Origin: an uncultured Clostridium sp.
GTDB lineage: Bacteria > Bacillota > Clostridia > TANB77 > CAG-508
Direction: 5' to 3'
Assembly (NCBI GenBank): GCA_947165355.1
Contig: CAMUZZ010000002.1
Location: 519-64,518 of the forward strand
DNA length: 64,000 nucleotides
Below are positions 2,707 through 50,930 of this stretch, piece after piece; within the stretch, counting starts at the first letter, position 1, and each line of letters starts with the position of its first letter. The notes under the pieces are model-generated. The model ran no database searches. It saw only the letters and a program-made list of their open reading frames with translations, and was not told the DNA's origin. The position numbers were made by a program, and so were the translations under genes.

Positions 2707-3636
2707 TTAATTTCTAACTGCATCTATGATTGCTTCTGCATCAATTTTAAAATACTTTAATAGCTCTTCTGCTTTACCAGACTTTCCAAAGCTGTCATTT
2801 AATCCAAGTCTTGTAAGCTTTTTAGGATAGTTATCTGTTAATACCTCTGAAATAGCAGATCCTAATCCACAAGCTATACTATGATCCTCTACAGAAATTA
2901 ATTTATTTGTTTCCTCTGCACACTTTATTATGGTTTCTTTGTCAATTGGTTTAATAGAACACATATCAACAACACTCACGTTTATTCCTTCTTTTTCAAG
3001 TATTTCTTTCGCTTTAAGTGCTTCTGAAACTGTTATTCCTGTAGCAAATATCGTAGCATCCGTTCCAGTTCCATGTACAATTGATTTTCCAATTTCGAAC
3101 TTTTGATTTTCATCGTATATTGCTGAGGATTTTAGTCTACAAAGTCTAACGTATGCAGGACCTTCCATATTTGATATTTCATTTATTATCCATCTTGTTT
3201 GGGCATCATCTGATGGAGAAAAAACTTTCATATTTGGAAGTGCTCTCATCATTCCTAAATCCTCTAGCATTTGATGGCTAGCTCCATCTTCCCCAACTGT
3301 AACACCCGCATGTGTTGCACATATTTTAACGTTTAAGTTAGGATAGCATATGCTATTTCGTACTTGGTCATATGCTCTTCCAGCAGCAAAAACCGCAAAC
3401 GTGCTTACGTATGGAATTTTACCACATGTTGCAAATCCTGCAGCAGTTCCCATTAAATCTTGTTCAGCTATACCTACATCAAAAAATCTATTTGGAAATT
3501 TAGATGCAAAAATATTTGTTTTAGTTGCTGTAGACAAATCTGCATCTAGTACAACTATCTTACTATTTAATTCACCTATTTTAGCAAGTTCTTCTCCATA
3601 ACTTTGTCTTGTTGCAATTTTTTTATTTTCATCCAT
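2707..3636 (-). CDS. Transketolase, C-terminal subunit (split tkt)
   Basis: 309 aa with FFDVGIAEQDLMGTAAGFA and GASHQMLEDLGMMRALPNM, the pyrimidine-binding and C-terminal domains of transketolase. Confidence 0.9.
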   Translation of the reverse strand: MDENKKIATRQSYGEELAKIGELNSKIVVLDADLSTATKTNIFASKFPNRFFDVGIAEQDLMGTAAGFATCGKIPYVSTFAVFAAGRAYDQVRNSICYPNLNVKICATHAGVTVGEDGASHQMLEDLGMMRALPNMKVFSPSDDAQTRWIINEISNMEGPAYVRLCRLKSSAIYDENQKFEIGKSIVHGTGTDATIFATGITVSEALKAKEILEKEGINVSVVDMCSIKPIDKETIIKCAEETNKLISVEDHSIACGLGSAISEVLTDNYPKKLTRLGLNDSFGKSGKAEELLKYFKIDAEAIIDAVRN

Positions 3637-4726: not shown

Positions 4727-5081
4727 GGGGGTGTAACGGTTTCGACAGTAATTTAGAAGTATAAATAGCGAGTAGTGGATGGTTGCTTCGGCCACTATAA
4801 AAAAGCAAAATAAATATAAACGCTGATAATACAGAATTAGCATACGCTGCCTAATTGCAGCGACGTCTTATCTTTAATGCCCACGTTTTAGAATAAGGCG
4901 ACGAATTTAGTGGGAAACGAAACTATTTCTTGCTATGGAAATAGCGGGTATTTTATAGCTACTCTATGCTAAGGTTTGTTTGTTAACCATAACTTAGGGG
5001 AATTTTAATAACAAACTGCACTCGGAGAAGTTTATATGGAAGAATTATTGGACAGGAGTTCGATTCTCCTCACCTCCACCA
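4727..5081 (+). ncRNA. ssrA: tmRNA (SsrA)
   Basis: 5' GGGGGTGTAACGGTTTCGACAG and 3' GGACAGGAGTTCGATTCTCCTCACCTCCACCA form the tRNA-like domain. The internal tag frame GCT GAT AAT ACA GAA TTA GCA TAC GCT GCC TAA gives ADNTELAYAA. The track ORF at 4625-4843 on the opposite strand is spurious. Confidence 0.9.
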
Positions 5082-7837: not shown

Positions 7838-8581
7838 TTAGTACTCTACTTTTACTAAAAATAGCCCACTTGGAGATAGTGTTTTTCCTGCTTTAGTTCT
7901 ATCTTTGTCTTCAATTATTTTTGGTACTGTATCAACATCAATTTTTCCCATACCAACATCAACAAGTGTTCCAGCTATAATTCTTACCATGTTGTACAAA
8001 AATCCATTACCTGTAAGTTCTATGTAAATTCTATTATTTTCCATCTCTTTTATTTCCGCAGAATAAATGGTTCTTACACTTGACTTGCTACTTGTTCCGC
8101 TAGATTTAAAAGCTTTAAAGTCATGCTCTCCTTCAAAATATTTTATTGCTTTTTTCATTGCATCAACGTCTAATTTAACTGGCATATGATACTCAAGATT
8201 TCTGTATATTGCGCTCTCACATTCATTGTTATTTATTACATATCTGTATGTTTTCTTTTTACATGTATATCTACTGTGAAATCTTTCGTCAACTTCCTCA
8301 GCCTTTAAAATTCTAATTGATTTTTTTAATTTTGAATTTAGTGCAAGTGCCCATTTATCTATAGGAATACTCTCATTATCTGTTTTAAAATTTGCTATTT
8401 GACCAAGTGCATGAACACCTGCATCAGTTCTTCCAGATGCAATTAAATCAACCTTTTCTTCCCCAGTTAATTCACATATTGCTCTTTCTATTTCGCCTTG
8501 AATATTTAGTTTTTTAGGTTGTTTTTGCCAACCATTAAAATCTTTGCCATCGTATTCAATTGTTAAACGTATATTTCTCAT
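7838..8581 (-). CDS. truA: tRNA pseudouridine(38-40) synthase TruA
   Basis: MRNIRLTIEYDGKDFNGWQKQ and SGRTDAGVHALGQ motifs. Confidence 0.9.
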   Translation of the reverse strand: MRNIRLTIEYDGKDFNGWQKQPKKLNIQGEIERAICELTGEEKVDLIASGRTDAGVHALGQIANFKTDNESIPIDKWALALNSKLKKSIRILKAEEVDERFHSRYTCKKKTYRYVINNNECESAIYRNLEYHMPVKLDVDAMKKAIKYFEGEHDFKAFKSSGTSSKSSVRTIYSAEIKEMENNRIYIELTGNGFLYNMVRIIAGTLVDVGMGKIDVDTVPKIIEDKDRTKAGKTLSPSGLFLVKVEY

Positions 8582-8606
8582 TATTCCCACCCTTCAATGT
8601 TTCAAT

Positions 8607-8662
8607 GGGGACGGTTCTGTTTGACACACTTTTTTAATTTTTGTGTCAAAAGAACCGTCCCC
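8607..8662. repeat. Inverted pair of GGGGACGG-core repeats forming a ~21-bp hairpin
   Basis: GGGGACGGTTCTGTTTGACACA ... TGTGTCAAAAGAACCGTCCCC lies between the cdaA stop and the truA start. No T-run follows on the transcribed strand. Confidence 0.75.
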
Positions 8663-8670
8663 TATTTTGT

Positions 8671-9588
8671 TTATTCTTCTTTATTACTTTCATTTGTAGA
8701 TTTACGTTTTATTCTACGTCTGATGTTTTTTACACCTCTTGATTTCTCGTTGTATTTTTCAGCAAAATCTTTTAATAATATTTGTTTTAAAGTTTCTTCT
8801 TTAACGTCAACTAATAATCTTCCATTTCTTGCAAGCGAAATCTTTCCAGTCTCTTCTGAAACAACAATTGCAACGCTATCTGATTCTTTTGCAATTCCAA
8901 GAGCTGCTCTATGTCTTGTTCCAAGCTCTCTTGCTATATCTTGATTACTTGCAAGTGGTAAAATACATGCTGCCGCTACTATTTTATTTTCAGAAATAAT
9001 TACCGCACCGTCATGTAATGGCGTGTTTGGTACAAATATATTAACTAATAATTGTGGTGATATTTCTGAGTTTACCACAATTCCAGAATCTATTATATCT
9101 TTAATTTTTATATCTTTTTCAAGAACAATTAAAGCTCCAGTTCTAGTTTTAGCAAGCTCTGTAGCCGCTATTACTATTTTATAAATATCTTCCTTAGTTT
9201 GAACATACTTATCTTTTTCAATTCCTATAAATCTTGTTAACTTGTTAGATCCAAGCTGTTCTAATGCCCTTCTAAGCTCTGGCTGGAATATAACAATTAA
9301 TGCAATTACACCGTATGTTAAGAATTGTCTTAAAAAGTAATTTATTATTGTTAATTGGAAAATTGAGCTAAGTGCGGTTAATATAATGTACAAAAATATT
9401 CCTTTTACAAGTTGCATAGCTCTTGAATTTCTTGATATTTTGAAAAATTTATATATTAAAAATACCACAATTGCTATGTCTATTATGTGTGGAACTAATT
9501 TAATTGGATATTGGTACAATTCGTTTAGATAACTTACTATGTGCTCTTGATAATATGTGTTAATATTTGCTAAAAGATTATTAAACAT
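8671..9588 (-). CDS. cdaA: Diadenylate cyclase CdaA (DisA_N domain, 3 N-terminal TM)
   Basis: GALIVLEKD, LHDGAVII and RHRAALGIAKESDSVAIVVSEETGKISLA motifs. Confidence 0.85.
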   Translation of the reverse strand: MFNNLLANINTYYQEHIVSYLNELYQYPIKLVPHIIDIAIVVFLIYKFFKISRNSRAMQLVKGIFLYIILTALSSIFQLTIINYFLRQFLTYGVIALIVIFQPELRRALEQLGSNKLTRFIGIEKDKYVQTKEDIYKIVIAATELAKTRTGALIVLEKDIKIKDIIDSGIVVNSEISPQLLVNIFVPNTPLHDGAVIISENKIVAAACILPLASNQDIARELGTRHRAALGIAKESDSVAIVVSEETGKISLARNGRLLVDVKEETLKQILLKDFAEKYNEKSRGVKNIRRRIKRKSTNESNKEE

Positions 9589-9699
9589 ACTTTCCCCCCG
9601 TTCAAACTTTACTATCTATAAGTATGGCATTTATTTTTAACTATAAAATAAAATGTGCTTGAAACATCAAGCACTAAGCCATTCTCTTTTGTTTTATAA

Positions 9700-9861
9700 T
9701 TATTTATTTACTAAAAAAGATACTACTGTAGCAACTAATGATGCAACCATTAAAAATGCTAAAATTCCAGCAAGTATTCTTGTGCAAACTGTATTTTTTG
9801 ATACATAATGTTTTTTATTTTCTATTTTTACTACATTCTCTTCATTTAAATTTTCGTCCAT
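9700..9861 (-). CDS. Small (53 aa) tail-anchored membrane protein, unannotated
   Basis: Below the ORF-track size cutoff. MDENLNEENVVKIENKKHYVSKNTVCTRILAGILAFLMVASLVATVVSFLVNK. SD AAGGAGGAG sits 6 nt upstream, and a hairpin terminator lies at 9643-9674. Confidence 0.45.
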   Translation of the reverse strand: MDENLNEENVVKIENKKHYVSKNTVCTRILAGILAFLMVASLVATVVSFLVNK

Positions 9862-9962
9862 TTTAACTCCTCCTTAGTTAAACGTCATACAATTATTATG
9901 TTAGCACATAATAGTACTTTTTTCAACAAATTTTAAAAATTTTATGTAGAGCCGAACTTTTG

Positions 9963-10000
9963 CACAAAAAAGGAGCACACCATCTTTCTGGTGCGCTCCT
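9963..10000 (-). terminator. Terminator of cassette A1
   Basis: Minus strand reads AGGAGCGCACCA-GAAAGA-TGGTGTGCTCCT followed by TTTTTT. Confidence 0.7.
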
Positions 10001-10003
10001 TAC

Positions 10004-10231
10004 TCACTGCTCATCTTTCGTTTTGAGGTTGAGCAGGGCTTCGGCCATGCCAAGAAGAGTTTCCTCGTTGTCTCTTCGGGCTACTTCCCGGGGGTCTCCA
10101 GATGCGCTGCTTTTAGGCTCATGGTACCAAATTCCACGTGCGTGAAAATCGGCAATAATTGCCCTTAGCATAGACACATCTGCGCTTTCGATTTGAGCAT
10201 AGCGCTCATTGAACTCTTTGCGTGTGATCAT
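10004..10231 (-). CDS. GC-rich small protein A1 (75 aa), unknown family
   Basis: SD AGGAGG sits 6 nt before the ATG. About 50% GC by hand count (113/228). Paralog of 10457-10690 (shared TLLGMAE). Confidence 0.6.
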   Translation of the reverse strand: MITRKEFNERYAQIESADVSMLRAIIADFHARGIWYHEPKSSASGDPREVARRDNEETLLGMAEALLNLKTKDEQ

Positions 10232-10306
10232 TTGAACCTCCTGTTCATTTGTACCCTCAATTGAGGGGTTGGCCTATAGTACTATCAGAAGTACTGATAC
10301 ATTACT

Positions 10307-10335
10307 ATTATATCATATTATGTTTACTATTTCAA
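10307..10335 (-). promoter_or_regulatory. Sigma-A-type promoter of A1
   Basis: Minus strand: TTGAAA, 17 nt, TGATATAAT (extended -10). Confidence 0.55.
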
Positions 10336-10420
10336 ATAAATATAATTTTTATTCTATTAAATAACCAATATATTATTTAATCTTCAATTACATTCGATGA
10401 TAGAAAAGTAATTTAAAATT

Positions 10421-10450
10421 AGAAAAGCACACCAGCAAAACTGGTGTGCT
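10421..10450 (-). terminator. Terminator of cassette A2
   Basis: Minus strand reads AGCACACCAG-TTTTG-CTGGTGTGCT followed by TTTTC. The stem sequence is related to the A1 terminator. Confidence 0.65.
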
Positions 10451-10456
10451 AAAGTA

Positions 10457-10690
10457 TTAGGATTCTTCATCGTGCAACATATAAAGCTTATGCTCTGCCA
10501 TTCCAAGCAATGTTGCCTCTGCAGTTGCGCCTTCCATTACATCTGATTCTAAGTTTGTAAGATGGAAGTTCTCGTCTTTCAGAGCCTTTTTCATAAGAAC
10601 TCTGTAGCGTGCCGTGATTTCTAAAAGCCGTTTAAGACTGGCTTCTTCAATCTCAGCAACAGCTGCCTTAACTTCGTCTTTCGACATCAT
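10457..10690 (-). CDS. GC-enriched small protein A2 (77 aa), paralog of A1
   Basis: SD AGGAGG sits 8 nt before the ATG. It aligns with A1 without gaps. LLGMAE is encoded with synonymous differences (CTT GGA ATG GCA GAG versus CTT GGC ATG GCC GAA). Confidence 0.6.
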   Translation of the reverse strand: MMSKDEVKAAVAEIEEASLKRLLEITARYRVLMKKALKDENFHLTNLESDVMEGATAEATLLGMAEHKLYMLHDEES

Positions 10691-10766
10691 AAATTTAACC
10701 TCCTAATTTTGACACGATTTCATTCGAAATCTGGGCCTATGTACTTTCGTACGTCTAACAGCCCAT

Positions 10767-10795
10767 ATTATACCATTTTTTAGGTATTACGTCAA
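10767..10795 (-). promoter_or_regulatory. Sigma-A-type promoter of A2
   Basis: Minus strand: TTGACG, 17 nt, TGGTATAAT. A second AATTGACG direct repeat lies 24 nt upstream. Confidence 0.55.
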
Positions 10796-10889
10796 TTGTT
10801 GCAACATGTTTCGTCAATTCTACCTTTGCATTCTAGTATTTCTAATTTTATGTTATAACTATTTTAACTTTTTAAACACAACTTATTTA

Positions 10890-13262
10890 TTATTTTCTTA
10901 GTTTAACTCCACATTTGCTTTCTACAGTTTCAATTATTTTTTCGAAAACTGGCGTTATTTCTTCTTCAGTTAACGTCTTCTTTGGATCATTAAAAGTTAA
11001 AGAATATGCTATAGATTTTTCATTTTCTCCTACATTTTCACCAGTATAAACATCGAAAACCTCAATATTTGTAAGCAGGCTTCCTCCTGCTTTTTTTATG
11101 GCCATTTCAATGTCTTTTGATGTTTTAGTTTTATCCATAACAAAAGCAACGTCTTTATTGATATTTGGATATGCAGAAATTTCCTTGTACTTCATCTTTC
11201 CAACTCTTTTAGCTAATAATTTATCTAAATTTATTTCCATTACAAAAACAGGATCTTTTGCTTGAGATGGATGTAACTTTCCAACAATACCAACGCCTTC
11301 ACCATTTACGTTTATTTCCGCAACTTGACCTGGATGGAACTCTGATGGTATCTCCTTTGGTATTAAGAAGCTGTACCTGTTTGCGTATCCTAAGTAGTCT
11401 AACAATTCTTCTACAATACCTTTAATAATATAAAAATCAACATTTGATTGATTTCCAACACCAATATAATACTTTCCTGTCATTAATGCTGCAATTTTTT
11501 GATTTTCCCCATATTCTTCTCCTTTTTTGAAGAATCCTTTTCCAATTTCGAATATAGAAATATCTTTATTGTAGTGTGCTTTGTTATATTCATAGGTTTT
11601 AACAAGTGATGGAATAACACTGTATCTTAACGTATTACGCTCCTCTGTTATAGGATCTAGAAGTTTAAGCTCCTCAAACTTGTCTGTTGTGAACTTATGA
11701 ACATCTTTGTCGTTTATTAAAATATAAGTTAATGTTTCATTTAATCCAAGCTCAGACATTTTATGTCTTATTGATCTTATTGTATTGTCGTAATCGCCTG
11801 CTTTTTGACCCATAACTGGAATTGTTCCTTTGATGTTATCTACACCATAAATTCTACTTACTTCTTCAATTAAATCCTCTTTTATTGAAATATCTAATCT
11901 TCTACTTGGCACATTTACTGTAACTTCTGAATCATTTGCATCGTACGTAAATGCTAACTTACGAAATACATTTAATATTTCTTCTTTAGATATATCTGAT
12001 CCTAGTACATCGTTTATATTTTTATATGATATTGTAATTTTTTTATCTTCTGGAGAAGTTGCATCATACTGACAAATTCCAGTTTTAACAGTTCCACCAG
12101 CATATTTTTCTAGCATTTGACAAGCTCTTTCTATTGCCATGTATGTTCTATGACAATCTAATCCTTTTTCAAATCTATTGCTTGCTTCACTTCTTACTAT
12201 CTTTTTAGAAGTTTTTCTAACTTTTACACCATCAAATATAGCAGCTTCTATTATTATGTTCTTTGTTTCAGGAGTTACCTCTGTATCTAGTCCACCCATA
12301 ACACCAGCTAGTCCTACAGACTTTTCTTTATTTGCTATAACTATATCGTTGTCATCAAGATCTCTTTCAATATTATCTAGAGTTGTTAGTTTTTCTCCAT
12401 TTTCAGCCATTCTTACTACTATAGTGTCACCTAGTTTATCGGCATCGTAAAAATGTAAAGGTTGTCCAAGCTCTAGCATTACGTAATTACTTATATCTAC
12501 AACATTATTTATTGGTCGTATTCCACAAGCCATTAATCTATTTTTTATAAAATCTGGACTTTCTTTTATTTCGGCATTTTCAACCTTTTTAGCTAAGAAC
12601 AAACTACAGTTTTCAGTTTGAACATCAACTTTAAAGCTATTGTTGATGTCGTCGCCAGATTCACCATGGCTTAGATTTAGCTCTTTTACAGGCCTATCGT
12701 AAACAGCTCCAAGCTCATATGCCATGCCCAGCATGCTTAATAAATCTCCTCTATTTGCTGTTAATTCAAAATCAACTATCTCATCATCAAATCCTAAATA
12801 TTTAATTGGATCTTCACCAACTACACTATCTTCACCAAGCTCAGCTATTCCTTCCTTATCTTCTGGTTTTAAGAACTTGTTGTCCAAACCTAGCTCAGCA
12901 ATAGAACACATCATACCATTTGATTCAACACCTCTGATAGCACCTGCTTTTATTTCTCCTCCTGGTAATTTTGCACCTGGAAGTGCGACAATAACTTTAA
13001 TTCCGGCTCTTGCATTTGGAGCACCACAAACAATTTGCAATATATCTTTTCCAACATTTACTTTGCAAACATGCAAATGATCTGAATCTGGATGCTCTTC
13101 ACATGTAATTATTTCTCCAATTACCAAATTTGTACAATCAATAAAATTGCGTGCTTCATCGTATTCATTACCAACACGAGTCATATCTTCACCAATTGTT
13201 TTAATATCTATGTCATCTGGTAAATCTATATAATCTTTAACAAAATTTCTACTTAATATCAT
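10890..13262 (-). CDS. pheT: Phenylalanine--tRNA ligase beta subunit
   Basis: 790 aa with tRNA-binding, B3/4, B5 and FDX-ACB domain order. It lies immediately downstream of pheS. Confidence 0.95.
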   Translation of the reverse strand: MILSRNFVKDYIDLPDDIDIKTIGEDMTRVGNEYDEARNFIDCTNLVIGEIITCEEHPDSDHLHVCKVNVGKDILQIVCGAPNARAGIKVIVALPGAKLPGGEIKAGAIRGVESNGMMCSIAELGLDNKFLKPEDKEGIAELGEDSVVGEDPIKYLGFDDEIVDFELTANRGDLLSMLGMAYELGAVYDRPVKELNLSHGESGDDINNSFKVDVQTENCSLFLAKKVENAEIKESPDFIKNRLMACGIRPINNVVDISNYVMLELGQPLHFYDADKLGDTIVVRMAENGEKLTTLDNIERDLDDNDIVIANKEKSVGLAGVMGGLDTEVTPETKNIIIEAAIFDGVKVRKTSKKIVRSEASNRFEKGLDCHRTYMAIERACQMLEKYAGGTVKTGICQYDATSPEDKKITISYKNINDVLGSDISKEEILNVFRKLAFTYDANDSEVTVNVPSRRLDISIKEDLIEEVSRIYGVDNIKGTIPVMGQKAGDYDNTIRSIRHKMSELGLNETLTYILINDKDVHKFTTDKFEELKLLDPITEERNTLRYSVIPSLVKTYEYNKAHYNKDISIFEIGKGFFKKGEEYGENQKIAALMTGKYYIGVGNQSNVDFYIIKGIVEELLDYLGYANRYSFLIPKEIPSEFHPGQVAEINVNGEGVGIVGKLHPSQAKDPVFVMEINLDKLLAKRVGKMKYKEISAYPNINKDVAFVMDKTKTSKDIEMAIKKAGGSLLTNIEVFDVYTGENVGENEKSIAYSLTFNDPKKTLTEEEITPVFEKIIETVESKCGVKLRK

Positions 13263-13291
13263 TTTTTACCTCCTACTTATATTTTCGTTAT

Positions 13292-14341
13292 TTAAATATC
13301 CTTTCTGTCGAATTGCTTTAAGAATCTTACATCATTTGCATATAAATATCTCATATCTGGTATTCCATATTTAAACATTGCAAGTCTATCTATTCCAGTT
13401 CCAAATGCAAATCCGCCCCACTCCTCTGGGTCGTATCCATTCATTTTTAGAACATTTGGATGTACAATTCCTGAACCAAGAACTTCTATCCAACCTGTTT
13501 GCTTACATAAGCTACATCCTTTACCTCCGCATTTAAAACATGTACAATCAACTTCATAAGAAGGCTCTGTAAATGGGAAATAACTTGGTCTGAAACGTAA
13601 TTCCGTATTTTCTCCAAGCATTTTTTTCATAAATACTTCCAAAGTTCCTTTTAAATCAGCTAGAGAAACTTTATTTTCTTTTTTATCTATTACTAATCCT
13701 TCAACTTGATTGAATTGATGAGAGTGTGTTGCATCATCTTCTCTTCTATATGTTTTTCCAACGCAAATCATCTTTATTGGCTTTTGATCTTTTGCATATT
13801 TTAGCATCGTGTGAGCTTGTACAGCAGATGTTTGTGTACGAAGTAAATATTCATCAGTTATATAGAATGAATCTTGCATATCTCTTGCAGGATGTCCTTT
13901 TGGTAAATTTAATCTTTCGAAGCAAAACTCATCTGTTTCAAGCTCTGGACCATCTATAACCTCGTATCCCATTGAAACAAATAAATCTTCAATTTCTTCA
14001 ATTGTTCTATTTAGTGGATGCTCGCTTCCTCTTATAGCCTTTTTGCTTGGAAGAGTTATATCTATTGTTTCTTTTTCTAATTTTTTGTTTAATTCTTCTA
14101 ATTTAAAAGCCTCTTCTTTCTCATTTATAATAGTTTCTAACTCATCTCTTACTTCGTTTACCAAGCTTCCAATTATTGGTCTTTCTTCAGCAGATAAACC
14201 TCCCATTCCTCTTAAAACAGAAGTTAATTCACCTTTTTTTCCTAGATATTTAACTTTTAAATCAACTAAAGTTTTTAAATCTTCTACCTTAGAGATTTCT
14301 TCTTTAGCAGTTAATTTAATTTTCTCAATTTCTTCTTTCAT
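13292..14341 (-). CDS. pheS: Phenylalanine--tRNA ligase alpha subunit
   Basis: [23 protein letters not shown] and [13 protein letters not shown] class II motifs. Confidence 0.95.
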
Positions 14342-14401
14342 AATTTCTTCCTTTCTTGGCAGTTTGATTTTAGAATTTTATATTCTAAATTTTACGTTTT
14401 T

Positions 14402-14459
14402 GAATTTTTTGCACCGTCCAAAATTTGACTTAATTTTTTTTGTTCCGTCCCCAAAATTC
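14402..14459 (-). repeat. Tandem pair (R3a, R3b) of the GGGGACGG-core repeat in the pheS 5' UTR
   Basis: Minus strand reads GAATTTTGGGGACGGAACAAAAAAAATTAAG then CAAATTTTGGACGGTGCAAAAAATTC, between the T-box terminator and the pheS SD. Confidence 0.7.
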
Positions 14460-14463
14460 AAAA

Positions 14464-14727
14464 AGAGCTATTCATCCTTAATAGGACGAATAGCTCGTGG
14501 TACCACCTAATTTTATATATTTATGCCAATGCTAAAAAGCTTGCATTTATATACCTTGTTATAGTTTTAACGTAACAACCGTATTGCCTACTATTACTTT
14601 CAGCAAATAACCTAAAAAGTGAAATTTCGTACATATTATGCTTTTTGGATTCACAGCTTAATATCCAAATTCTCTTTAAACAAAACATATATACTACTTT
14701 GCTTTTTAATTGGCTTATTTTAAATAT
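14464..14727 (-). promoter_or_regulatory. T-box riboswitch leader of pheST
   Basis: The T-box sequence AGGTGGTACCACGAGC overlaps the terminator GAGCTATTCGTCC-TATTAAG-GATGAATAGCTC plus TTTTT. An AGAGA box sits in stem I, and a candidate UUC specifier lies in GAAATTTCAC. The promoter TTGTAC-17-TGATACAAT is at 14734-14762. Confidence 0.8.
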
Positions 14728-14779
14728 GTTTAGATTGTATCATACAATTACAAAAAGTACAAGCATACTTTGCAATAAA

Positions 14780-15190
14780 CTAGAATATGCTATAAGCTAC
14801 TAAAGTAATTATAAATCCTAAAACAGCTAAAGCTAAGTCTATTATACCTAGAACTATACCAGCTGTTGCCATACCTTTTCCTTTTTGCTCTGGGAAAATT
14901 TTTAGTTTATTTTTTGCAGCTATACCTAAGCTTAAAGCTATAATTCCAAGCCATAAGTTAGCAATAAAAATACCTACAATACCACAAACCATAGCAGCAA
15001 TTGCTAGTCCATTTGTTTTTGGTGCCACACCTGCTTGACTTGCATTTGTGTTTACTGTTTGTGTGTTATTAACTACTACTGGCTCCTCTTTTACTTCTGT
15101 TTTTTCAACTTCTGCTTTTGCTCCGCAGTTTGGGCAAAATTTTTCGTCATCTCCTAACATTGTTCCACAATGCATACAAAAATTACTCAT
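14780..15190 (-). CDS. Zinc-ribbon membrane protein (DUF4190-like C-terminus)
   Basis: CMHCG...CPNCG zinc ribbon plus Gly/Ile-rich TM hairpins. SD AAGGAGAG. Confidence 0.6.
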   Translation of the reverse strand: MSNFCMHCGTMLGDDEKFCPNCGAKAEVEKTEVKEEPVVVNNTQTVNTNASQAGVAPKTNGLAIAAMVCGIVGIFIANLWLGIIALSLGIAAKNKLKIFPEQKGKGMATAGIVLGIIDLALAVLGFIITLVAYSIF

Positions 15191-15204
15191 TTTAATCTCT
15201 CCTT

Positions 15205-15606
15205 TTATTTTTCGTTTACTATTGATTCTATTTGTGCTATACCTGATACAAGACCCATTCTCATAACAGAGTTCACATATATTTTACTATATTCTGAAGA
15301 AAAATCAATCTCTTTTTGATAAGCTTCTCCAAATGTATCGAATACAACCTTGTGAGTTCCTGCTGGCAATTCAACTTCAGCAGATGCTCCATTTTTAAGT
15401 GATGCAACATTATTTCCGTCAACAAAAATTCTTATTGGAATAGCACATCCCATTAGTCTTTTTCTTCTAGTGAATACAACTTTAACAGTTTTATTTTCTG
15501 GTGCTTTTATATTTTGCTCAAAAAGCGCTCTGTCTATTTTAGTTCCACAAAATTTACAAAATTCGCTTTCGTTTGGTATTTCTTTTCCACACTTATTACA
15601 AAACAT
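15205..15606 (-). CDS. Zinc-ribbon domain protein
   Basis: MFCNKCGKEIPNESEFCKFCG. Start moved to 15606 behind AAAGGGGA. Confidence 0.55.
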   Translation of the reverse strand: MFCNKCGKEIPNESEFCKFCGTKIDRALFEQNIKAPENKTVKVVFTRRKRLMGCAIPIRIFVDGNNVASLKNGASAEVELPAGTHKVVFDTFGEAYQKEIDFSSEYSKIYVNSVMRMGLVSGIAQIESIVNEK

Positions 15607-18015: not shown

Positions 18016-18044
18016 TTGACATTATTAACATAATGTGCTAGAAT
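18016..18044 (+). promoter_or_regulatory. Sigma-A-type promoter of cassette B
   Basis: TTGACA, 17 nt, TGCTAGAAT. Confidence 0.5.
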
Positions 18045-18092
18045 TGTTCGTATGGGACAATGTTCCAAATTTAAATATGAGGGAGTGTTAAC

Positions 18093-18374
18093 ATGCTTCA
18101 AGAGGTTCCCAACTTCAAAGATGCTATCTTTGAAATAACGGAAAATGAGGGAAATCAGATAGCAACCATTTCTGTTTATGGTCACAAAAAGAGCATTACT
18201 GCTGCCGCGCTAATTAAGGTTATGCGGGATTTTGGCAGAAAGAAACGTTTCTTCAAGTACTATGACAGTTCTGATGTACCCGTAAAGCACCAGCAACTTC
18301 CGAGCAACTCTGACTGCTACTCTGCATTTGCATGCATGAGTATGGAAACTGGAGAGCTGCTCTACTACCTCTAA
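18093..18374 (+). CDS. GC-enriched small protein B (93 aa), unknown family
   Basis: SD GAGGGAG. Visibly higher GC than its neighbours. Convergent with proS. Confidence 0.5.
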   Translation: MLQEVPNFKDAIFEITENEGNQIATISVYGHKKSITAAALIKVMRDFGRKKRFFKYYDSSDVPVKHQQLPSNSDCYSAFACMSMETGELLYYL

Positions 18375-18380
18375 ATAGCA

Positions 18381-18430
18381 TGGAGACCAGGTAAGTGTAT
18401 TTTTACACATTGCCTGGTCTCCACTCTTTT
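18381..18430 (+). terminator. Terminator of cassette B
   Basis: GGAGACCAGG ... CCTGGTCTCC, then CTCTTTTT. Confidence 0.7.
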
Positions 18431-18449
18431 TATAATTATATTTTATATA

Positions 18450-19993: not shown

Positions 19994-20030
19994 GCGTGCA
20001 TTATATCATTTCTAGTTTTAAAAGTCAACA

Positions 20031-20058
20031 AAAAACGGGGCGGACATACATCCACCCC
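20031..20058 (-). terminator. Terminator of cassette C
   Basis: Minus strand reads GGGGTGGA-TGTATG-TCCGCCCC followed by GTTTTT. Confidence 0.65.
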
Positions 20059-20066
20059 ATAGAAAC

Positions 20067-20330
20067 TCACTTGAACGCTTCCGCGTTCTCGGATTCTGCT
20101 GCCGACTGATTACAAACTTTTTCCGCAATCTTACGGAGAAGCTCCGTTTGCTTGCGCTGTTCATCCAGGAGTAACATAATGCAATTCTCTACGTTATGCA
20201 TCTCCTGCATAATGTCCTGGCTCTTATTTGCCGTATAGTCTGTTGCTTCCGAAGATTTTTTTACAATTCCCCGAATGTCCATCAGCGCCTCTAAAATCCG
20301 AGGCATTTCGTAATCGTAATTGCCGCCCAT
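20067..20330 (-). CDS. GC-enriched small helical protein C (87 aa), unknown family
   Basis: Start set at MGGNYDYEMPRILEAL (20330) behind AAAGGAG. The longer track ORF has no SD. Confidence 0.5.
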   Translation of the reverse strand: MGGNYDYEMPRILEALMDIRGIVKKSSEATDYTANKSQDIMQEMHNVENCIMLLLDEQRKQTELLRKIAEKVCNQSAAESENAEAFK

Positions 20331-20400
20331 GGTGAGCTCCTTTCTCCAGCAATGCTGGTTAAAAATTTTTACATGTGACATATCTGCCACATCCAATATA

Positions 20401-20429
20401 ATTATACCATTTTTATGTTAACCGGTCAA
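20401..20429 (-). promoter_or_regulatory. Sigma-A-type promoter of cassette C
   Basis: Minus strand: TTGACC, 17 nt, TGGTATAAT. Confidence 0.5.
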
Positions 20430-35974: not shown

Positions 35975-36051
35975 TGGTAGCGAGAAGTGGATTCGAACCA
36001 CCGACCTGCCGGGTATGAACCGGATGCTCTAGCCAACTGAGCTATCTCGCC
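35975..36051 (-). tRNA. tRNA-Met (CAU anticodon, elongator type)
   Basis: Minus strand reads GGCGAGATAGCTCAGTTGGCTAGAGCATCCGGTTCATACCCGGCAGGTCGGTGGTTCGAATCCACTTCTCGCTACCA. It folds as a cloverleaf with encoded CCA. The anticodon arm resembles Bacillus elongator tRNA-Met; Ile2 (lysidine) is not excluded. Confidence 0.9.
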
Positions 36052-50350: not shown

Positions 50351-50379
50351 TTGATAAAATTTACATAATGTGGTATAAT
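50351..50379 (+). promoter_or_regulatory. Sigma-A-type promoter of cassette D
   Basis: TTGATA, 17 nt, TGGTATAAT. Confidence 0.5.
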
Positions 50380-50457
50380 ATATTTACTGTTAGCAAATGG
50401 CTACAGTCGCTCTTCGGAGTGTAAACAAACCTACCACAATTAAGGGAGGAAACACAA

Positions 50458-50877
50458 ATGAAAAAGGCATTTCTGTTAGGTTTTGGCGTAATCGTTACCC
50501 TTCTGGGAACGATAGGATTTCTTCTTCTGCCGGTGTTTATACACTTGGTAGTTACAAAGTGCTTCGTCGACATGAGTGCTGGTACGAAATTAATTCTTTT
50601 CTGCATTGCAATTGAAGGATGTTTTGTACAAGCCGGTATACTCGAGTATTTATCCAAAAAAGAATACGGAGGAAGTCCTTGGGTGATACTGAGAGTATCG
50701 CTGATTCCCCTAGCTATAATAATATTTGCCACTATAGTAGCGTGGCCTGCAGTATTATTAGAGCACCTGGGATTCGGTAGCACGGCACAATATCTTGGCA
50801 CATTCATATGGCTTGTGGTTTTTATTTTTATTTTGATTGCAGTCGCAGTTTACGAACCCAAAACAGAAAAGCACTAA
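50458..50877 (+). CDS. GC-enriched 4-TM membrane protein D (139 aa), unknown family
   Basis: SD AAGGGAGGA. It is the only plus-strand gene inside the minus-strand polysaccharide locus. Composition is visibly higher in GC. The antisense track ORF at 50361-50807 is a shadow. Confidence 0.55.
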   Translation: MKKAFLLGFGVIVTLLGTIGFLLLPVFIHLVVTKCFVDMSAGTKLILFCIAIEGCFVQAGILEYLSKKEYGGSPWVILRVSLIPLAIIIFATIVAWPAVLLEHLGFGSTAQYLGTFIWLVVFIFILIAVAVYEPKTEKH

Positions 50878-50888
50878 AACACAAAAAA

Positions 50889-50918
50889 AGGAGTAGTGAA
50901 TTCTACTCCTCTTTTCTT
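50889..50918. terminator. Bidirectional terminator (cassette D / rfbA)
   Basis: AGGAGTAG-TGAATT-CTACTCCT, flanked by an A-run and a T-run. Confidence 0.7.
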
Positions 50919-50930
50919 TGTTTACTTATT

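Follow-up and report, generated by a model that had tools for sequence, protein, structure and literature searches.

Two small genes, orfA and orfB, lie between pheT and orf53-cdaA in the genome of a gut Firmicute with 29.5 % GC; each has its own promoter, leader and terminator, both differ in base composition from the host genes, and the two proteins are distant copies of one another. With modest confidence, a little above even, we regard them as chromosomal 'moron-like' accessory cassettes, foreign by composition, that encode fast-evolving small three-helix binder proteins. They would be two independently transcribed protein-coding genes, diverged copies of a soluble family of about 75 residues, and the slot between pheT and orf53-cdaA would be a variable site occupied by autonomous cassettes. 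In the following, the window denotes the whole stretch of 64,000 nucleotides that was analysed.

Layout of the two cassettes

The orfA/orfB pair is located on the minus strand of the window and both cassettes are complete (Table 1), so that the order promoter, leader, ORF and terminator proposed in the initial annotation was borne out, with near-consensus promoters and both terminators detected. The leaders are present as well, their length being nearer 70 nt than the 75 nt given there. The surrounding genes are pheST, cdaA, a truA-like gene, hpf and transketolase genes. Genes related to sporulation (BofA, DUF2508) also occur nearby.

Table 1. Positions of cassette elements, flanking repeats and further cassettes in the window
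Feature	Position	Strand	Details
Cassette A promoter	10795-10767	-	-35 TTGACG, 17-nt spacer, TG-extended -10 TATAAT; consensus match 11/12
Cassette A leader	10691..10760	-	about 70 nt, two hairpins, precedes SD
orfA	10690-10457	-	77 aa; ATG start; SD AGGAGG
Cassette A intrinsic terminator	10417..10450	-	11-bp stem 10450-10426 and T-run
Cassette B promoter	10335-10307	-	TTGAAA-TAGTAAACATAATATGA-TATAAT, 17-nt spacer, TG-extended -10; consensus match 11/12
Cassette B leader	10232..10300	-	about 70 nt, two hairpins, precedes SD
orfB	10231-10004	-	75 aa; ATG start; SD AGGAGG
Cassette B intrinsic terminator	9962..10001	-	13-bp stem AAGGAGCGCACCA...UGGUGUGCUCCUU at 10001-9970 and T-run
Direct repeat AATTTTATGT, right copy	9938..9947	.	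perfect 10 nt, spacing 906 nt
Direct repeat AATTTTATGT, left copy	10844..10853	.	same perfect 10 nt as 9938..9947
Cassette-class member	18016..18432	+	promoter TTGACA-TTATTAACATAATGTGC-TAGAAT; orphan ORF 18093-18374, 93 aa, GC3 0.47; terminator
Cassette-class member	20030..20429	-	promoter TTGACC-GGTTAACATAAAAATGG-TATAAT; two-hairpin leader; orphan ORF 20330-20067, 87 aa, GC3 0.54; terminator
Cassette-class member	50351..50919	+	promoter TTGATA-AAATTTACATAATGTGG-TATAAT; two-hairpin leader; orphan membrane ORF 50458-50877, 139 aa, GC3 0.37; terminator

The spacer of the cassette B promoter carries the motif AACATAAT. At the cassette A promoter, an additional TTGACG is present 22 nt upstream. 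The cassette A leader consists of the hairpin GUAC-GAAA-GUAC, the segment AUAGGCCCA, the hairpin GAUUUC-GAAU-GAAAUC, 11 nt and the SD AGGAGGUU; the cassette B leader has the same order with the hairpin AGUACU-UCUGAU-AGUACU, AUAGGCCAA, the hairpin CCCUC-AAUU-GAGGG, 11 nt and again AGGAGGUU. In both, the second hairpin stands exactly 11 nt 5' of the unpaired AGGAGG, which is followed by the ATG at a spacing of 6-9 nt, and between B and A three of five pairs of this hairpin are substituted on both sides. The cassette A terminator reads AGCACACCAG-UUUUG-CUGGUGUGCU before its T-run, and the terminator stems of the two cassettes (GCGCACCAG/ATGGTGTGC versus GCACACCAG/CTGGTGTGC) are related, as had been noticed earlier. 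This anatomy fits a stable monocistronic mRNA and would suit constitutive and high expression. No terminator was found between the pheT stop (10890) and the cassette A terminator; the pheST transcript probably ends at the latter, too, and read-through from the T-box-controlled pheST operon may also transcribe cassette A. The perfect direct repeat brackets the two-cassette block. A rough chance estimate for it is about 0.05, and the repeat, which is suggestive of a target-site duplication, may be an insertion or recombination scar or may have arisen by chance.

Coding status, paralogy and predicted fold

BLASTP aligned orfA and orfB with 31 % identity over 70 residues (E=0.003, 19 bits). In a shuffle test the local score was 47 compared with 25 ± 4.8 (p=0.0005), and the semi-global z-score was 5.7. 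By sequence comparison, orfA and orfB are true paralogs. That the proteins align almost without gaps was a slightly generous description: the alignment stood, with two to three small gaps needed. Identity per codon position amounted to 0.41/0.51/0.25, hence third positions were random (saturated), and 13 of the 20 identical residues are encoded by differing codons, as in the TLLGMAE motif with ACT CTT CTT GGC ATG GCC GAA in one copy and ACA TTG CTT GGA ATG GCA GAG in the other. Among strains, orfB has two SNPs, both synonymous. The initial annotation had noted the different codons of the motif and argued for selection at the protein level; these data agree in placing the similarity there. Gene callers recovered orfA and orfB in independent assemblies, and the ORFs were identical across independent samples; the exact orfA protein is on record in five contigs and the exact orfB protein in three, while one orfA variant carries the substitution F42V. 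On these sequence grounds, orfA and orfB are protein-coding.

AF2 modelled both proteins as three-helix bundles, orfA with helices 4-16, 19-42 and 49-76 (pLDDT 81, pTM 0.69) and orfB with helices 4-15, 19-31 and 47-74 (pLDDT 78, pTM 0.63), the confidence being moderate for an input of a two-sequence alignment. The small, acidic and helical products predicted from the first inspection were recovered, the acidity being mild. The residues that A and B have in common are for the most part hydrophobic or small, as suits the packing of helices (I14, L22, I25, LLGMAE); the loops and the remaining sequence are variable. Such proteins would be non-enzymatic and may bind a partner stoichiometrically, either inhibiting it or serving as an adaptor, and they may form homo- or heterodimers.

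Structured RNAs classically show up as GC-rich islands in AT-rich genomes, and the islands might accordingly be structured non-coding or dual-function RNAs in which the ORFs are incidental. We consider this very improbable. The folds of the whole cassettes, terminators included, were better than those of shuffled sequences (z = -5.9 and -3.4), the second leader hairpin survives three double substitutions, orfB occupies the island where GC peaks in the window, and the ORF of the related cassette C described below is devoid of synonymous variation. The leaders folded alone were not clearly better than shuffles (z = -0.7 and -1.5 for A and B). Against an RNA stand the consensus AGGAGG 6-9 nt from the ATG in both cassettes, the 75- and 77-codon frames that are both intact in sequence of 41-50 % GC, the coherent AF2 folds of both proteins, and the similarity of A and B that tracks codon positions and amino acids, not nucleotides. 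A search of Rfam at E<=1 across positions 9000-15500 yielded the pheS T-box as sole match and no family for the leaders; known RNA leaders, riboswitches included, were therefore rejected.

In Pfam and NCBIfam (both at E<=10), PHROGs and PADLOC no family reached the threshold for orfA or orfB; the best family match, DUF6261 with 14.1 bits at a cut-off of 27, was rejected. Each protein retrieved only itself in word-indexed searches of 5.8 billion protein clusters; an HMMER profile run exhaustively against 1.84 billion representative proteins, and scans of contigs from genomes, viruses and metagenomes with back-translated patterns, likewise returned self-matches alone. A three-sequence profile added nothing from the 5.8 billion clusters except close variants of cassette C. 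Phage and plasmid records contained no homolog by blastn, and when every ORF of 97 loci was searched by hmmsearch with the A1 profile, no further family member emerged. The PDB sequence search had a de novo designed helix bundle as its only match (E=0.01). The absence of homologs covers relatives closer than roughly 40-45 % identity; because A and B themselves reach only 19 bits, a third member just as remote would escape the billion-sequence searches. Foldseek against PDB and BFVD obtained generic helical matches alone, all with E>=0.25 and the best in PDB with E=0.76. Matches to L29/eL35-type ribosomal proteins, the Nas2 N-domain, MazG-like and uncharacterised phage proteins were rejected at this level. 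Together, orfA and orfB appear to form a lineage-restricted orphan family that is recorded in one species and probably has a relative in a sister species.

Size, the shape of a helical hairpin or bundle, mild acidity, the arrangement as tandem paralogs and the sporulation-related neighbours would also suit membership in one of the established groups of small helical regulatory proteins, i.e., phosphorelay inhibitors like Spo0E or Sda, anti-sigma and anti-anti-sigma factors, type II antitoxins or secreted pairs of the WXG100/Esx kind. Such a membership is highly unlikely, given the almost empty Pfam and NCBIfam results, fold matches in PDB no better than E=0.76, the lack of WxG and Spo0E SQELD-type motifs in both sequences and the lack of an operon with a toxin or sigma factor; moreover, the genes are absent from sister species, unlike core regulators of this type. 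A Spo0E-like phosphatase was rejected, as the SQELD-type motif and a Pfam match are missing. Since orfA and orfB are mutual paralogs in separate transcription units, with a terminator and a promoter between them, a toxin-antitoxin pair is unlikely. EsxA and EsxB of the WXG100 proteins resemble the pair as adjacent small helical paralogs that could heterodimerise, and EsxA was hit in the fold search at an insignificant E=7.2; orfA and orfB differ from them in length (about 75 versus about 100 aa), in separate transcription and in the absence of type VII secretion genes nearby. Without a Pfam WXG100 match and a WxG motif, and with this fold value, WXG100/Esx membership was rejected.

Base composition and occupancy of the slot

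The GC3 values of orfA (0.40) and orfB (0.49) are far above those of the host genes (mean 0.180, sd 0.024, maximum 0.235, n=45), and no 75-codon chunk of host genes exceeded 0.303 (n=197). In orfB, the site of the window's GC maximum, the codons CGC, CGG, CCC, CTG and GCC occur, which are unusual in a genome of 29 % GC. As GC3 outliers, orfA and orfB have a history different from that of the surrounding chromosome. Of the five nearest relatives with conserved synteny, four (L004, L005, L010 and L013) lack the block, and in them pheT directly adjoins orf53-cdaA; L009 carries another insert in this slot.

The sister species, represented by L006 and L084-L087, has a single cassette C with a 74-aa ORF in the same slot and orientation. 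Its promoter and early leader are about 88 % identical to those of cassette B over 45 nt. The DNA alignment of the B and C ORFs exceeded codon-shuffled controls (z=+4.2), and the comparison of A and C proteins yielded p=0.03; with the A1 profile, C went undetected (E=26-43, 6362 ORFs searched). The ORF of cassette C is probably related to orfA and orfB, at the edge of recognition. Four-fold sites of the two species were identical at 0.52, with 0.44 expected, which is near saturation, and cassette GC3 was 0.44-0.49 in both species. Between strains ORF C had no synonymous changes, compared with 36/442 synonymous codon changes in pheT and 35/306 in cdaA. Its codon 38 has three alleles, ATG, CTG and CAG, and these hint, together with F42V of orfA, at diversifying change in loops. 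ORF C was intact in all six alleles seen, and the L006 allele has lost the SD region of the cassette by a deletion of about 34 nt. In this species, the segment of ORF plus terminator looks younger than the promoter. A TGA-as-Trp read-through in P0010 (YSAWERR) was judged a gene-caller artefact.

The shared slot, orientation, similar size and near-identical promoter with early leader of B and C, as well as the faint similarity of C to both ORFs, are consistent with old, vertically inherited, lineage-specific genes that were present in the common ancestor with the L006/L084 species and lost elsewhere, while selection for mRNA structure, stability or escape from nucleases maintained their GC. Neutral sites near saturation and yet an elevated GC3 in both species, the synonymous invariance of ORF C and the strong folds of the whole cassettes point in this direction. 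We consider such an inheritance rather unlikely: the slot is empty in most of the closest relatives, orfB uses codons rare for its host, C escapes the profile, and the invariance of ORF C fits a recent sweep or cargo exchange equally well. As counterpoint to a recent transfer, the slot of the sister species is filled behind a near-identical promoter while neutral sites are close to saturated; this pattern could reflect long residence with the GC held up by selection.

Foreign DNA fragments that are open by chance and tolerated in a permissive intergenic slot would be non-functional debris, an interpretation to which we give little credence. No search found homologs, the distribution among relatives is patchy, the slot accepts other inserts and one cassette C allele has lost its SD region, all as expected for debris. 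Both copies, however, have retained complete sets of near-consensus signals despite randomised third codon positions; core residues are kept between the copies, the SNPs in orfB are synonymous, the ORFs do not differ among independent samples, and ORF C is intact in each of the alleles seen.

The initial annotation had assumed a duplication of the whole module followed by divergence. Promoter core, part of the leader, SD and terminator stem are indeed related. A simple duplication in place with slow divergence is unlikely, because both genes are GC3 outliers, the block is missing from most relatives and a set of like cassettes shares a special promoter. Most likely, the split of A and B is older than their arrival, or the slot turns over. 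For accessory cassettes of the kind favoured here, arrival would have occurred most likely by horizontal transfer or cassette exchange, and most of the divergence of A and B probably preceded it. The roles in binding and conflict we infer only by analogy: the proteins may serve a process that evolves fast and differs among strains, for example conflict with phages or between bacteria, or adaptation to a niche. A partner, donor or mobility gene was not identified for the cassettes.

A shared promoter and comparison with known systems

The unusual promoter with AACATAAT in the spacer is common to three further GC-rich orphan cassettes in the window (Table 1), and the near-identical promoter TTGAC.AAGTAAACATAAT.TG.TATAAT was observed before unrelated genes within one genome and across related genomes. 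Relatedness of orfA and orfB to the cargos of the other cassettes (isl1, isl2, L089, L094) was at chance level. That one type of promoter stands before GC-rich orphan genes with no relation to each other is the more novel lead, and a promoter search offers a practical handle for further 'dark-matter' genes in uncultured gut bacteria. Tentatively, and with considerable doubt, one may think of a cassette system not described before, in AT-rich gut Firmicutes with reduced genomes: a sigma-A promoter of this sequence, portable or propagated, plus a short structured leader would serve as resident expression platform, behind which unrelated GC-rich orphan cargos of ORF plus terminator are inserted, swapped and swept through populations, with the high GC maybe actively maintained and the loops of the helical proteins under diversifying selection. 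The cargo GC3 of 0.4-0.5 versus 0.18 in the host poses the testable question whether selection maintains the foreign composition or slots turn over before amelioration.

Morons of phages are defined as extra DNA in comparison to related genomes, with own promoter and terminator and a differing GC content that implies horizontal transfer (Cumby, Davidson & Maxwell 2012, PMC3594210). The cassettes likewise are extra DNA at a fixed position relative to the four relatives with an empty slot, each has its own promoter and terminator, the GC content is unlike that of the neighbours and the cargo is small. Unlike morons, they reside among chromosomal housekeeping genes (pheT, cdaA), not in a prophage, and form a tandem paralogous pair; phage genes were not found in the annotated neighbourhoods, and viral DNA and protein collections gave no match. 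If the moron-like reading is true, the locus is a clean natural case of small-protein genes with moron anatomy among core genes, outside a recognisable mobile element, and the proteins represent a new orphan three-helix family beyond any sequence or fold library.

Integron cassettes share with the locus a fixed expression platform, exchangeable small ORFs that each end in a hairpin, and the two-unit array; the younger appearance of ORF plus terminator in the sister species is a further likeness. Differences are the promoter in every unit and the 3' end, which is a GC-rich stem with T-run lacking attC R'/R'' core sites, and no integrase domain was present among the annotated genes around the locus or the 50-kb cassette. 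Putative mobile promoters, or promoter propagation, have reportedly been described in prokaryotes. They resemble the present case in that a near-identical promoter stands before unrelated genes within and across genomes. What sets the cassettes apart is that their promoter is specifically associated with orphan cargo of raised GC whose leaders and terminators are built alike. A transposable element carrying the shared promoter was not identified. Novel families of small proteins have reportedly been described from gut microbiomes. With fewer than 100 residues, no known domain, a restricted range and an origin from gut metagenome assemblies, orfA and orfB are similar to these; their family is far rarer and stands out by an unusually clear foreign composition and autonomous expression signals.

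Tandem cassettes behind pheT

The stretch behind pheT holds two full monocistronic units, cassettes A and B, each composed of promoter, leader, ORF (orfA or orfB) and terminator. Ninety-five nt separate the pheT stop from cassette A, and an AT-rich spacer of 90 nt precedes cassette B. In a consensus scan both promoters had 11 of 12 matches and the TG extension, and both terminators were recovered computationally. No terminator was present in the interval between pheT and cassette A (10796-10889). The pheST transcript, controlled by a T-box ahead of pheS, probably reads on into orfA and stops at the cassette A terminator. Unlike the window, the related locus L004 has a pheT terminator of its own. 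A perfect 10-nt direct repeat (AATTTTATGT, spacing 906 nt) flanks the two-cassette block and could be a junction scar or a coincidence in AT-rich DNA.

Coordinates of the cassettes and neighboring features in the window
Feature	Coordinates	Strand	Details
tmRNA	4727-5081	+	tag ADNTELAYAA
orf53	9700-9861	-	53 aa
orf53 promoter region	9862-9935		TTGAAAA..ATGTGCTAACATAAT
Direct repeat	9938-9947		
Cassette B terminator	10001-9970	-	13-bp stem
orfB	10231-10004	-	75 aa
Cassette B leader		-	~70 nt, then AGGAGG
Cassette B promoter	10335-10307	-	TTGAAA-17-TGaTATAAT; pattern match 10307-10335
Cassette A terminator	10450-10426	-	11-bp stem + T-run
orfA	10690-10457	-	77 aa
Cassette A leader		-	~70 nt, then AGGAGG
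Cassette A promoter	10795-10767	-	TTGACG-17-TGgTATAAT
Direct repeat	10844-10853		
pheT stop	10890		
pheS T-box	14479-14719	-	
Orphan cassette	18016-18432	+	93 aa, GC3 0.47; pattern match 18016-18044
Orphan cassette	20429-20030	-	87 aa, GC3 0.54; pattern match 20401-20429
tRNA-Met	35975-36051	-	
Orphan cassette	50351-50919	+	139-aa membrane protein, GC3 0.37; pattern match 50351-50379

Judged by sequence comparison, the paralogy of orfA and orfB is statistically solid: BLASTP gave 31% identity (E=0.003), the local score was 47 versus 25 +/- 4.8 for shuffled sequences (p=0.0005), and the semi-global z-score was 5.7. In a codon alignment guided by the protein, identities at codon positions 1, 2 and 3 were 0.41, 0.51 and 0.25, thus third positions are random. 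Different codons encode 13 of the 20 identical residues, TLLGMAE residues among them, and orfB showed only two differences from three other assemblies, both synonymous and in third position. The similarity is therefore kept at the protein level, in line with the initial annotation. The kinship includes non-coding parts. The -35 and extended -10 elements are alignable; common to both cassettes are the leader segment GUAC-loop-GUAC-(A/U)AUAGGCC(C/A)A, the SD region AGGAGGUU and the terminator stem GC(A/G)CACCAG. Leader hairpin 2 lies in both exactly 11 nt upstream of the SD, with 3 of 5 stem pairs changed on both sides (AUUUC/GAAAU in A, CCCUC/GAGGG in B). Since silent sites are saturated, these conserved promoter, leader, SD and terminator pieces are, by this comparison, under selection. 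We regard A and B with good confidence as real, autonomously expressed, accessory protein genes. That they are junk is improbable in view of two full sets of conserved signals. A role of the islands as RNA only is highly improbable, as neither the SD sites nor the codon-position pattern would fit it.

An orphan family of predicted helical proteins

The orfA/orfB family is new. Pfam, NCBIfam, PHROGs and PADLOC contained no family for either protein, no match came from phage and plasmid records or from genome, viral and metagenome contigs scanned by pattern, and a PDB sequence search gave no useful match. A word-indexed search of 5.8 billion clusters and an exhaustive profile search of 1.84 billion representatives returned self-hits only, to be read against a score of just 19 bits between A and B: an equally distant third member would miss the E-value thresholds in libraries so large. 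Membership in known small-regulator families is very improbable, since these families failed each test applied.

AlphaFold2 predicted, from the two-sequence alignment, three-helix bundles for both proteins (pLDDT 78 and 81, pTM 0.63 and 0.69), and their net charge is slightly negative. The invariant positions are mainly hydrophobic or small (I14, L22, I25, L59, L60, G61, M62, A63, L67), next to a few glutamates, and we therefore read them as a helix-packing core, not a catalytic site. Foldseek against PDB and BFVD yielded generic helical matches only, with E-values of at least 0.25 and without functional information.

The pheT-orf53 slot in relatives and cassette C

A PheT scan provided 80 related loci from MAGs of uncultured gut 'Clostridia/Bacilli'. 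In L004, L005, L010 and L013 (PheT 73-89% identical) the 0.9-kb block is missing, and pheT is followed directly by orf53 and cdaA. The orf53 of relatives is conserved, 48-53 aa long and tail-anchored; the copy in the window, immediately ahead of cdaA, encodes a membrane protein, also tail-anchored, and has no family assignment. Its promoter region is strongly conserved and includes an ACATAAT string as in the cassette promoters. Locus L009 carries another insert in the slot (8376-9140), an ORF on the opposite strand for a predicted membrane protein of 168 aa. The slot acts as an accessory-DNA hotspot.

A single cassette, C, occupies the slot in a sister species, represented by L006 (PheT 89%) and the same-species metagenome contigs L084-L087 and L097. 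It consists of the promoter TTGACA-CAGTAAACATAATATGA-TAAAAT, a structured leader, an ORF of 74 aa (MNETEYKKIRDSIKNASCKFELDRIIDDLRGRVYSCNMYLSTCRGNATPEDIKEAGSLTALLRLAEEEFFYRYSA; GC3 0.44) and a terminator 3' of the ORF. Promoter and first ~20 leader bases are ~88% identical to B; fourfold degenerate pheT sites between the two species are nearly saturated (0.52 identical vs 0.44 expected). The motifs I-x-x-A-S/D, L-x-x-I-I-x-D and LL-x-(M/L)-AE are colinear in C, A and B. The protein comparison of A and C gave weak support (p=0.03), the DNA comparison of B and C z=+4.2 against codon shuffles; the A1 profile, used in hmmsearch for further members, left C undetected, and hhalign returned E=0.21. 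The ORF of C is thus a probable third family member, as yet unproven. Public gene calls for C (P0010, L084:2394-2633) run past a TGA as Trp to the C-terminus YSAWERR, with YSA as the end under table 11; the read-through is apparently an artefact, the caller having used genetic code 4 for short contigs.

Differences between strains at cassette C, with L084 as reference
Region	L084 vs L097	L084 vs L086
pheT	36 synonymous in 442 codons	38 synonymous in 411 codons
cdaA	35 synonymous in 306 codons	beyond aligned stretch
ORF C	0 synonymous, 2 nonsynonymous (M38Q, two base changes; T48S)	0 differences
128 nt 3' of ORF C	0 differences	0 differences
Promoter + early leader of C (105 nt)	8 differences	7 differences

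In the genes flanking C 8-11% of codons differ synonymously, in ORF C none, and promoter and early leader vary more than the ORF (L084:2394-2621, L086, L097, L006:3095-3319). In an otherwise invariant ORF, three alleles occur at codon 38: ATG, CTG (M38L, in L006) and CAG. The F42V change in a fragment of orfA from a different sample likewise lies at the helix 2/loop boundary. The numbers are small: the cargo of C (late leader, ORF, terminator) may be younger than promoter and flanks, by a sweep or exchange, or may be under nucleotide-level constraint. Under either reading, change is concentrated in a loop. In the L006 allele (3060-3130 vs L084:2330-2430) a deletion of ~34 nt has removed the original start codon together with the SD, so that leader sequence is joined to the ORF via a new ATG; the 74-aa ORF is still open.

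Base composition and the recurrent promoter

The window has a GC content of 29.5%; the orfB island reaches 55% in 150-nt windows, its highest value. GC3 was 0.49 for orfB and 0.40 for orfA, versus a mean of 0.180 for 45 host ORFs (sd 0.024, maximum 0.235), and none of 197 75-codon chunks of host genes exceeded 0.303. Codons of orfB include CGC, CGG, CCC, CTG and GCC, rare for such a genome. Synonymous sites saturated between A and B, together with both GC3 values far above the host, call for either a GC-richer donor with recent arrival or a GC content held by selection. In the first case, A and B would have diverged inside the donor and reached the host recently; selection for high GC, the main rival, appears unlikely. 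Morons are defined by their own promoter, own terminator, deviant GC and prophage context (PMC3594210). A and B have the first three of these four features, but lack the prophage context. By a small margin over even chances, we consider them moron-like chromosomal cassettes for fast-evolving small proteins, predicted three-helix binders.

Three further GC-rich islands in the window are self-contained orphan genes with an anatomy like A and B: the promoter is of the extended -10 type and has AACATAAT in its spacer, the leader contains a hairpin, the SD is strong, and a terminator ends the unit. Pfam, PHROGs and PADLOC held no family for the 93-, 87- and 139-aa ORFs. The pattern TTGNNN-N4-6-(A/T)ACATAA-N4-6-TANNAT matched only four times on both strands of the 64 kb, each time at a cassette promoter, B included; the promoter of A is a degenerate form. 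A stricter B/C-type pattern had no match in viral contigs and was found in 10 metagenome contigs, all AT-rich (L088-L097), in each properly positioned ahead of an SD and its ORF; these ORFs belong to no known family, and most have raised GC. Looser matches in loci of relatives (L009, L020, L023, L032, L070) likewise lie upstream of unknown genes. In this clade, the promoter TTGAC.AAGTAAACATAAT.TG.TATAAT recurs before orphan genes that are unrelated to one another and for the most part GC-elevated; it may have been propagated or be mobile, or may serve a shared regulator as its operator. There are hints of cargo turnover behind a resident promoter. A genuine cassette system, one special promoter tied to unrelated GC-rich orphan cargos, is a tentative and not very likely reading; the link between promoter and cargos is a more unusual lead than one orphan small-protein pair without function. 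The window also contains ordinary housekeeping RNAs, a tmRNA, a tRNA-Met and the pheS T-box leader.
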